Assembly (NCBI GenBank): GCA_965202585.1
Contig: OZ241827.1
Span: 22,134,001 to 22,198,000 of the forward strand
Reading direction: 5' to 3'
Length of the DNA: 64,000 nt
From: Thalia democratica
Lineage: Eukaryota
Shown here: positions 15,209-15,400 of the stretch, one piece after another
Layout: every line of letters begins with the position of its first letter
Position numbering within the stretch: position 1 is the stretch's first letter
Program-made: the position numbers and the translations under genes
The notes under the pieces: model-generated
Databases searched by the model: none
What the model was told of the DNA's origin: nothing
Seen by the model: the letters and a program-made list of their open reading frames with translations, nothing else

Positions 15209-15400
15209 AAAGGCCTTTCGTCGAAAGACGAAAGGTCTTTTTTTTTAACAAATTTTTTTAAAAGGCTTTTCGTCCAAAGACGAAAGGTATTTTTTTTAAC
15301 AATTTTTTTTTAAAGGCCTTTTGTCGAAAGACGAAAGGTCTTTTTATTACCATTTTTCTTTTCAAGGCTTTTTGTCGAAAGACGGAAGGTCTTTTTTTAC
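15209..15400 (+). repeat. Four tandem ~52-nt hairpin + T-tract units (copy 40102-40293)
   Basis: AAAGGCCTTTCGTC-GAAA-GACGAAAGGTCTTT consensus starting at 15209, 15261, 15312 and ~15363, each followed by a T-rich tract. Confidence 0.93.

Follow-up and report, generated by a model that had tools for sequence, protein, structure and literature searches.

To our knowledge, animal RNA polymerase I (Pol I) works almost only on rDNA. Satellites derived from rDNA spacers are known outside rDNA in plants and flies, and HINE, DINE-1 and non-autonomous Helitron2 elements have sub-terminal inverted repeats, hairpins, tandem arrays and cargo. According to a recent account, Pol I termination depends on a roadblock protein, a T-rich tract and an RNA hairpin whose sequence is free; in organisms ranging from yeast to human, hairpins of this kind are present at both the main and the fail-safe Pol I terminators (Nielsen and Zenkin 2025, PMC12366685). 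In yeast, Pol I transcription of ectopic HOT1 leads to recombination of flanking repeats and excision of circles, as described in the accessible portion of PMC4470286. Two sources concern R2: the Bombyx element needs an upstream GC motif and has the cleavage-site consensus T-T-N-A-N-N-T (PMC10499050), and in Drosophila, expansion of the rDNA copy number is associated with R2 (PMC11700107).

Here, we describe four hairpins, each followed by a T-tract, in Thalia democratica. They close a non-coding cassette of 1.1 kb bracketed by an 18-nt pair (14356-14373 and 15417-15434) in the window, which is the whole stretch of 64,000 nucleotides that was analysed. We consider that these units are probably Pol I-type terminators of a cassette that copies host rDNA and heads non-coding segments likely spread as circles. 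The parts of the cassette outside the units are as follows.

14356..14373, + strand: left 18-mer, host 28S rDNA at the R2 insertion site, sense orientation
14389..14443, + strand: rDNA-like block, host rDNA 471-528 bp upstream of 18S
14437..15088, + strand: GC-rich non-coding body, sequence conserved, consensus fold weakly supported
15089..15204, no strand: palindrome, perfect, 116 bp, without spacer
15417..15434, - strand: right 18-mer, 28S site, inverted, about 17 nt past the last T-tract

The four hairpin and T-tract units

15209..15246, + strand: unit 1, 14-bp stem, GAAA loop, T9; -20.7 kcal/mol on +, -15.3 on -
15261..15297, + strand: unit 2, capped by CAAA, stem with a further G·T pair and a G·A mismatch, T8; -12.4 on +, -7.1 on -
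15312..15348, + strand: unit 3, capped by GAAA, stem with a further G·T pair, T-tract interrupted; -18.6 on +, -9.3 on -
15363..15400, + strand: unit 4, capped by GAAA, stem with three further G·T pairs, T7; -15.2 on +, -3.5 on -

Each unit consists of a 10-14-bp stem, a 4-nt loop and a T-run. The unit starts (15209, 15261, 15312 and 15363/4) and their spacing of 51-52 nt confirmed the four units at the place given in the initial annotation, and Tandem Repeats Finder reported a period of 51 with 3.9 copies and 87% matches. Compared with unit 1, the stems carry C>T opposite G in units 2, 3 and 4 and A>G opposite T in unit 4, just as had been described, and the two exceptions recorded at that time (the CAAA loop and the G·A mismatch) both lie in unit 2. 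One G·T pair is common to all four units. The RNA fold of 15205-15410 reached -69.6 kcal/mol on the + strand (z -7.8) and -43.2 kcal/mol on the - strand (z -3.4), and none of 200 shuffles folded as well on either strand. A consensus intrinsic-terminator scan found nine terminator-like sites in 14000-16000 against 0.9 expected; together with the far better fold of the + strand, this bears out the terminator-like form that had been claimed. Past the right 18-mer, a weaker GAAA hairpin with a T-tract was seen at 15502-15540, and by eye it occurs in several subfamilies.

Copies of host rDNA in the cassette

The block at 14389-14443 matched host rDNA by blastn with 84% identity over 56 nt (E 1.8e-7), and the cassette profile matched the rDNA block 471-528 bp upstream of 18S with an E-value of 1.2e-14, once per rDNA unit; the 18S start and the 28S end were placed by Rfam. 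The rDNA block is located where GC climbs from about 0.15-0.2 to 0.4-0.5, at a boundary between AT-rich and GC-rich sequence. In the cassette, the matching block lies upstream of the hairpin units and on the same strand. It is the best conserved of the sampled 60-nt bins and is present in 14 of 14 other cassette types. Judging by its position, 14389-14443 is likely a Pol I core promoter. Pol I initiators are purine-rich, and from this and the position we infer a Pol I start near 14437.

The 18-mer is present in host 28S, and a 35-nt pattern gave 252 matches in the genome. TTAAGG is the usual eukaryote form at the 28S site; the host site (e.g., L133:1515-1532, - strand) reads TTGAGG, with TTAA lost and the R2 cleavage consensus kept. 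The two 18-mers had been described as a closing inverted repeat. Its reading as an RNA helix is not supported: both copies are the 28S rDNA site and lie outside the predicted transcript, and of 59 cassettes, 7 lack the right copy and 1 carries it reversed. Since the 18-mers would be outside the transcript and the right copy is dispensable, they appear to act as a DNA site.

Insertions at the host 28S site were found at the following loci.

L154-L155 (C37), L156 (C26), L158 (C386), L164 (C522): R2 and short insertions at the 28S site

Exactly at this site lies a full-length R2 (4.3 kb, with a 981-aa ORF), and two shorter insertions of 1.5 kb have the same R2 5′ end and different 3′ ends. All seven R2 5′ ends found were in true 28S and none in cassettes. 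In R2-bearing rDNA stretches, the cassette profile matched the promoter block and nothing else. The 28S sites of the cassettes are without the central GC of the Bombyx-type upstream motif and keep the cleavage-site consensus.

Several further observations were made on rDNA and its 28S site. A further, unclassified insertion on C522, at least 5 kb in length, has its end at the host 28S R2 site. The spacer of the rDNA unit (L134-L135, 15,085 bp) contains U2, U5 and two 5S genes according to Rfam, and inverted rDNA units with sharp junctions occur at L166-L167 (C100) and L168-L169 (C365). A 2.4-kb transposon at L074:1897-4263, with CACAGTG ends, a 5-bp duplication and a decayed transposase, is presumably Transib/RAG-like, judging from its motifs. 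Some 190 bp from its 3′ end, it contains the 28S site as a copy of 32 nt, in a context that gave 118 matches. A Transib-like family with the same 28S word hints at a protein or nuclease reading the site. A search of the genome for the His-Cys homing endonuclease (PF05551) gave no match, and the control likewise matched nowhere.

The cassette family

In the genome search (802 Mb), 40 of 282 candidates were scored, with identities of 78-100%. The 22-nt promoter word of the cassette type had 215 exact matches, corresponding to at least 215 copies outside rDNA; among the 100 matches listed, most were clustered at a spacing of 17-50 kb. In one region (G000:C2:92.58-94.01 Mb), 31 cassettes lie within 1.4 Mb in blocks of opposite orientation, together with a repeating BACK/Kelch gene.

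The cassette is conserved across subfamilies while its flanks turn over. The left 18-mer (up to 2 mismatches) is present in all 59 distinct cassettes; the right one is inverted in 51 of the 59 (24 of these degenerate), direct in one and absent in seven. One subfamily has the right 18-mer reversed (L065:2321), and another has a back-to-back pair (L073:4161-4197). Perfect palindrome arms of at least 48 bp were found in 44 of 59 cassettes, with arm sequences that vary between subfamilies, and in several copies the palindrome is deleted or interrupted at its centre. Among the 59 distinct cassettes, 36 have one unit, 11 have two, 5 have three, 3 have four, 1 has six and 3 have none, as counted by a pattern that misses degenerate units. 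Because the number of units ranges from 1 to 6, the stack of four is a local expansion; the count given at the outset thus holds for 15209-15400 and not as a fixed number for the family.

A doubled GTGCGTAC motif at 14210-14237, about 120-170 bp upstream of the left 18-mer, is kept by most subfamilies and was not found in the host rDNA upstream region. It is possible that this doubled motif is an upstream control element or an origin.

A number of candidate identities for the cassette were rejected or found insufficient support. Derivation of the body from the host 5′ ETS is not established: z-scores were 1.2-4.6 with lax gap costs and about 2 with strict ones, under which the reversed ETS scored about the same. 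In the 13500-16500 region, no Rfam family matched at its gathering score, and the best E-values were generic hairpin matches to the palindrome. Resemblances to a hammerhead, a group I/II intron, a telomerase template and a phage promoter were considered by eye and dropped. A conserved protein in the array units was likewise discarded: the shared ORFs are translations of the cassette or belong to a decayed Penelope-like fragment.

Selection on stems and variation of loops

A total of 31 unit types were recovered, and after two false matches had been dropped, 29 were analysed. They fall into four stem classes with different sequences (e.g., GTC/GAC versus GAC/GTC beside the loop), all of which pair. 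With each position and pair counted once per class, there were 49 distinct Watson-Crick events in the stems, 14 of the G·U type and 5 of other types, and none (0) of the A·C type. The excess of G·U over A·C has a one-sided p of about 6e-5, assuming strand-symmetric transitions. This assumption was controlled in three subfamilies (9, 24 and 7 copies). For C>T/G>A, the counts were 30/34 upstream, 14/13 at paired sites, 5/12 at unpaired sites and 15/13 downstream; for A>G/T>C, they were 56/50, 10/10, 5/3 and 24/17, respectively. Among recent variants, complementary transitions were near equal in all five regions. Hence, with nearby mutation strand-symmetric, the pairing-preserving variation on the + strand noted initially stood up in the homologous copies: stem-breaking changes (5 other and 0 A·C) were set against 14 wobble-preserving G·U changes. 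Selection on the stems for + strand pairing is supported.

DNA folding parameters likewise favour the + strand for the hairpins; therefore, the G·U test gives the strand and not the molecule, and the G·T bias also fits hairpins of single-stranded DNA. In the body (650 nt, 13 representatives), no G·U bias was found, with 27 G·U against 26 A·C, and the change was two-sided in 9 of 167 pairs. A conserved fold of the body is therefore unsupported.

The loop is GAAA in 22 of the 29 unit types; GAUG, GACG, GAUA, AAAA and CAAA also occur, and whole subfamilies carry GAUG, GACG or GAUA. The GNRA caps proposed in the initial annotation are thus correct for the GAAA units but fail as a family rule, with 7 of 29 unit types being non-GNRA. 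Because loops of the GAUG, GACG and GAUA types are found in other subfamilies, a GNRA loop is not required.

Probable termination by Pol I and the host 3′ ETS

The host 3′ ETS contains four GC hairpins of -25 to -27 kcal/mol, the first 40 nt past the 28S end, each followed by a T-run of 6-9 T that is interrupted in the third. The first of these hairpins, which is capped by GAAA and contains G·U pairs, gave a weak match to the cassette profile (E 0.014); the remaining three show no sequence homology to the cassette units. Therefore, the link between the cassette units and the host hairpins is mostly architectural. The form had been thought unexpected in an animal nucleus, which no longer holds once Pol I terminators are considered.

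The cassette units combine a stable RNA hairpin with a non-template T-rich tract, downstream of a block resembling the start of rDNA and in the same orientation. The promoter copy, the + strand bias, the free stem sequence and the variable unit number are consistent with the Pol I terminator model, and stems that changed between subfamilies with pairing kept fit the requirement for a hairpin of any sequence. As to the roadblock, no long word shared by the cassette and the host rDNA terminator was found as a common site. A loose spacer between the T-tract and CAA occurs in 69 of 76 unit tails, a raw count without a background rate. The right 18-mer, located about 17 nt past the last T-tract, is not present in the host 3′ ETS. 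In the marine metatranscriptome run X1 (contigs, word share 0.06), depth was 19-81 over the body, 0-8 over the palindrome and hairpins, and 4-21 over the downstream flank; this profile, which is without a matched silent-stretch control, roughly follows that of the DNA-like run X2, and DNA carry-over is therefore possible.

Based on the Pol I reading, we suggest the following course of transcription. Pol I would start near 14437 and produce a transcript of about 0.8 kb running through the palindrome. It would be released at the first hairpin, and the further units would serve as fail-safe terminators. The extra units may have arisen by slippage or unequal exchange.

Arrays, host duplication and a proposed circle model

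The window is made up of a 24,893-bp tandem repeat, for which reason an identical set of units is found at 40102-40293; a third set lies just past the window end.

8251..13723, - strand: host segment X, part of a MASP/C1r-like gene with EGF, CUB and Sushi exons
13724..33249, + strand: mobile segment E, 19.5 kb, with the cassette at its head
40102..40293, + strand: four units, second identical copy, in the next 24,893-bp repeat

The order of the segments is X0-E-X1-E-X2-E-X3-R, segment X being repeated before, between and after the E copies. The three tandem E copies have 1-2 nt differences over 19.5 kb, and no ORF of at least 120 aa was found in segment E (19.5 kb). Contig C4 contains a copy collinear with 13723-31314 at about 82-92%. 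The 5′ exons of the MASP/C1r-like gene adjoin X3 only. Between loci, homology starts 110-920 bp upstream of the left 18-mer and extends downstream for up to about 17 kb. The flank homology is a patchwork following the subfamily, and kilobases of unrelated flank move with the cassette between chromosomes. No common end or junction motif and no long ORF were found in the loci compared.

With respect to the surroundings, the ordinary host genes left of the array (841-1257, 3894-4442 and 5005-6801) encode a DUF4528 protein, an ARM-repeat protein and an adaptin N-terminal protein. Downstream of the cassette, a 103-bp tandem repeat at 15549-15860 is present in three copies, with a lower copy number in related loci. 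At 16600-17900, there are decayed fragments which we take, from their motifs, to be a Penelope-like reverse transcriptase and GIY-YIG, an assignment for which a Pfam search gave no support; they occur in some subfamilies of the large unit, not in all.

In the window, the differences between X0 and the inner X copies are confined to the part left of 10860, and those between X3 and the inner copies to the part right of 12135. At no site do X0 and X3 share a state that departs from the inner copies, and the haplotype switch is thereby bracketed at 10860-12135. The C7 array has the form X0-(E-X)n with an X of 10.8 kb, and its switch falls inside an interval of about 250 bp, with 3 stray sites. The array at C2:21.6 Mb has the same form with an X of 11.6 kb and a wider switch bracket, while the array at C5:0.7-0.8 Mb begins inside E and fits this form poorly. 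Consequently, three of the four arrays examined have a terminal host duplication of 5-12 kb with one haplotype switch. Terminal duplication with a single switch fits circle integration, and one crossover between a circle (E plus X of one haplotype) and the X of another explains the array ends. Two independent crossovers or an assembler switch are alternatives for the switch at the array ends.

How such circles might form is more weakly inferred. As an ectopic Pol I unit, the cassette could promote its own recombination in a HOT1-like manner. Breaks at the palindrome or the 28S site, perhaps made by R2 at the latter, would lead to excision of circles comprising the cassette and its flank. A single crossover in the captured host DNA would bring the circle back into a homologous chromosome, where it would then be amplified in tandem. 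The presence of all seven R2 5′ ends in true 28S and the missing central GC motif of the cassette speak against the R2 break route. As a tentative extension, in which we place distinctly less trust than in the terminator reading, the cassette may be a protein-free, selfish mini-rDNA that hijacks the host machinery for rDNA transcription and copy number, possibly including R2 breaks, and forms circles with tens of kilobases of host DNA, followed by homologous re-integration and tandem amplification of host genes.

Alternative explanations

It is conceivable, although we regard it as unlikely, that the cassettes are a host family of Pol I-transcribed ncRNA genes multiplied by ordinary segmental duplication, with the hairpins still acting as terminators. 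The product would be an RNA about 0.8 kb long with a perfect duplex of 58 bp at its end, e.g., a source of small RNAs or a decoy for rDNA parasites. A conserved cassette amid changing flanks and palindrome arms that remain perfect suit a gene family of this kind, and both 28S sites could be decoys for the resident R2. However, there is little constraint on the fold of the body, the arrays retain copies whose palindrome is deleted or broken, unrelated flank travels with the cassette between chromosomes, and the cassettes have trapped no R2 (7/7 in rDNA). Less likely again is a non-autonomous rolling-circle element of the Helitron2/HINE type, in which the 18-mers would be sub-terminal inverted repeats and the hairpins would stop replication of single-stranded DNA, their bypass capturing flank. 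Such an element would account for the inverted 18-mer pair, the T-rich hairpins, the tandem arrays and the cargo, and DNA folding favours the + strand too. It leaves the rDNA promoter match and the extra terminal host copy with its switch unexplained, and it conflicts with the want of a fixed terminus (the left boundary lies about 110-920 bp upstream of the 18-mer, with no common junction motif) and with a right 18-mer missing or reversed in 8 of 59 cassettes. In the array units read, no RepHel ORF was found.

The T-runs of 5-9 after each hairpin could also be Pol III terminators of a small-RNA gene or a SINE, but the body already contains T5-T7 runs ahead of the palindrome, the match of the upstream block is to the rDNA start region and not to a tRNA, 5S or U6 promoter, and no Rfam family matched at its gathering score; we consider this very improbable. 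Hardly any credence, slightly less still, is given to the proposals of the initial annotation that the stack was imported from bacteria or organelles or that the units are GNRA docking modules. The sites do satisfy a consensus intrinsic-terminator scan, whereas a search of GTDB genomes and IMG/VR for the exact hairpin gave 0 matches, the neighbouring parts are copies of host nuclear rDNA, and the host rDNA has four hairpin and T-tract units of its own. Docking modules are at odds with loops that vary and are not always GNRA. The terminator form is native, not bacterial.

Wider searches and significance

No exact match to the cassette words was found in viral, metagenome or prokaryote contig collections (exact patterns only), and the literature searched, which covered few subscription papers, gave no account of a dispersed start-to-stop mimic of rDNA. 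A protein search gave hits at 50-67% spread over many groups of animals. More than 200 conserved mimics of this kind would be natural Pol I units outside the nucleolar genes. The cassettes would also test the 2025 hairpin model of Pol I termination in vivo, because their stems changed between subfamilies without losing + strand pairing. Should circle formation be driven by the cassette, this would be a route to gene duplication, the arrays repeating MASP-like and Kelch exons, and the cassette would be a natural counterpart of yeast HOT1.

Comparison with known systems

Like R2 and its internally deleted copies, the cassette has the 28S target word with the cleavage consensus T-T-N-A-N-N-T kept (PMC10499050, in the part available), but it is not inserted in 28S, its profile matches no R2 copy, and the upstream GC motif is missing. 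An R2-derived element was therefore rejected: in R2-bearing rDNA the profile matches the promoter block only, and the R2 5′ ends are in rDNA (7/7).

Compared with HINE and DINE-1, the cassette has no fixed ends, its inverted repeat is a 28S copy that is dispensable on the right, and the rDNA promoter would be unexplained; a HINE/Helitron2 identity was rejected on the lack of fixed termini (left boundary about 110-920 bp upstream of the 18-mer). As far as the accessible descriptions go, rDNA-spacer-derived satellites and Cassandra elements, the latter with a 5S promoter, resemble the cassette in placing rDNA control sequence outside rDNA. Those are simple satellites or Pol III LTR retroelements, whereas the cassette is a start-to-stop unit with variable host cargo.

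The 28S insertion site of Pokey is the same as that copied in the cassette. According to the part of PMC3849761 at hand, Pokey and mPok of Daphnia are, like the cassette, mobile DNA tied to the 28S site in which rDNA spacer is best conserved and host DNA is picked up. Unlike Pokey, the cassette has neither a piggyBac transposase nor terminal repeats and shows no duplication of TTAA, TTGA being the sequence of the host site; it carries an intact 28S site instead of sitting in it, and it forms tandem units of 17-50 kb. A Pokey/mPok (piggyBac) identity was rejected on the TTGA host site, the intact site inside the cassette and the absence of an ORF. Pokey would be, by analogy, the nearest mobile precedent for keeping rDNA spacer sequence.

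The Pol I terminators of the 3′ ETS, consisting of a hairpin, a T-tract and a Reb1/Nsi1/TTF1 roadblock, share with the cassette a stable hairpin of free sequence, a T-tract and fail-safe repeats downstream of the rDNA start (PMC12366685, as far as the available text describes them). The cassette differs in lying outside rDNA, with rRNA coding sequence limited to a 28S site of 18-27 nt, and in that its units are preceded by a perfect 116-bp palindrome and no candidate roadblock site was found. In yeast HOT1, as in the proposed cassette, an ectopic Pol I promoter and elements of the rDNA 3′ spacer drive recombination (PMC4470286, available portion). The single-switch terminal duplications in three of the four arrays might be products of HOT1-type recombination, the Pol I promoter being read from position. 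Within what that source describes, HOT1 is an engineered insert that needs Fob1; the cassette would be its natural, multi-copy form (PMC4470286).
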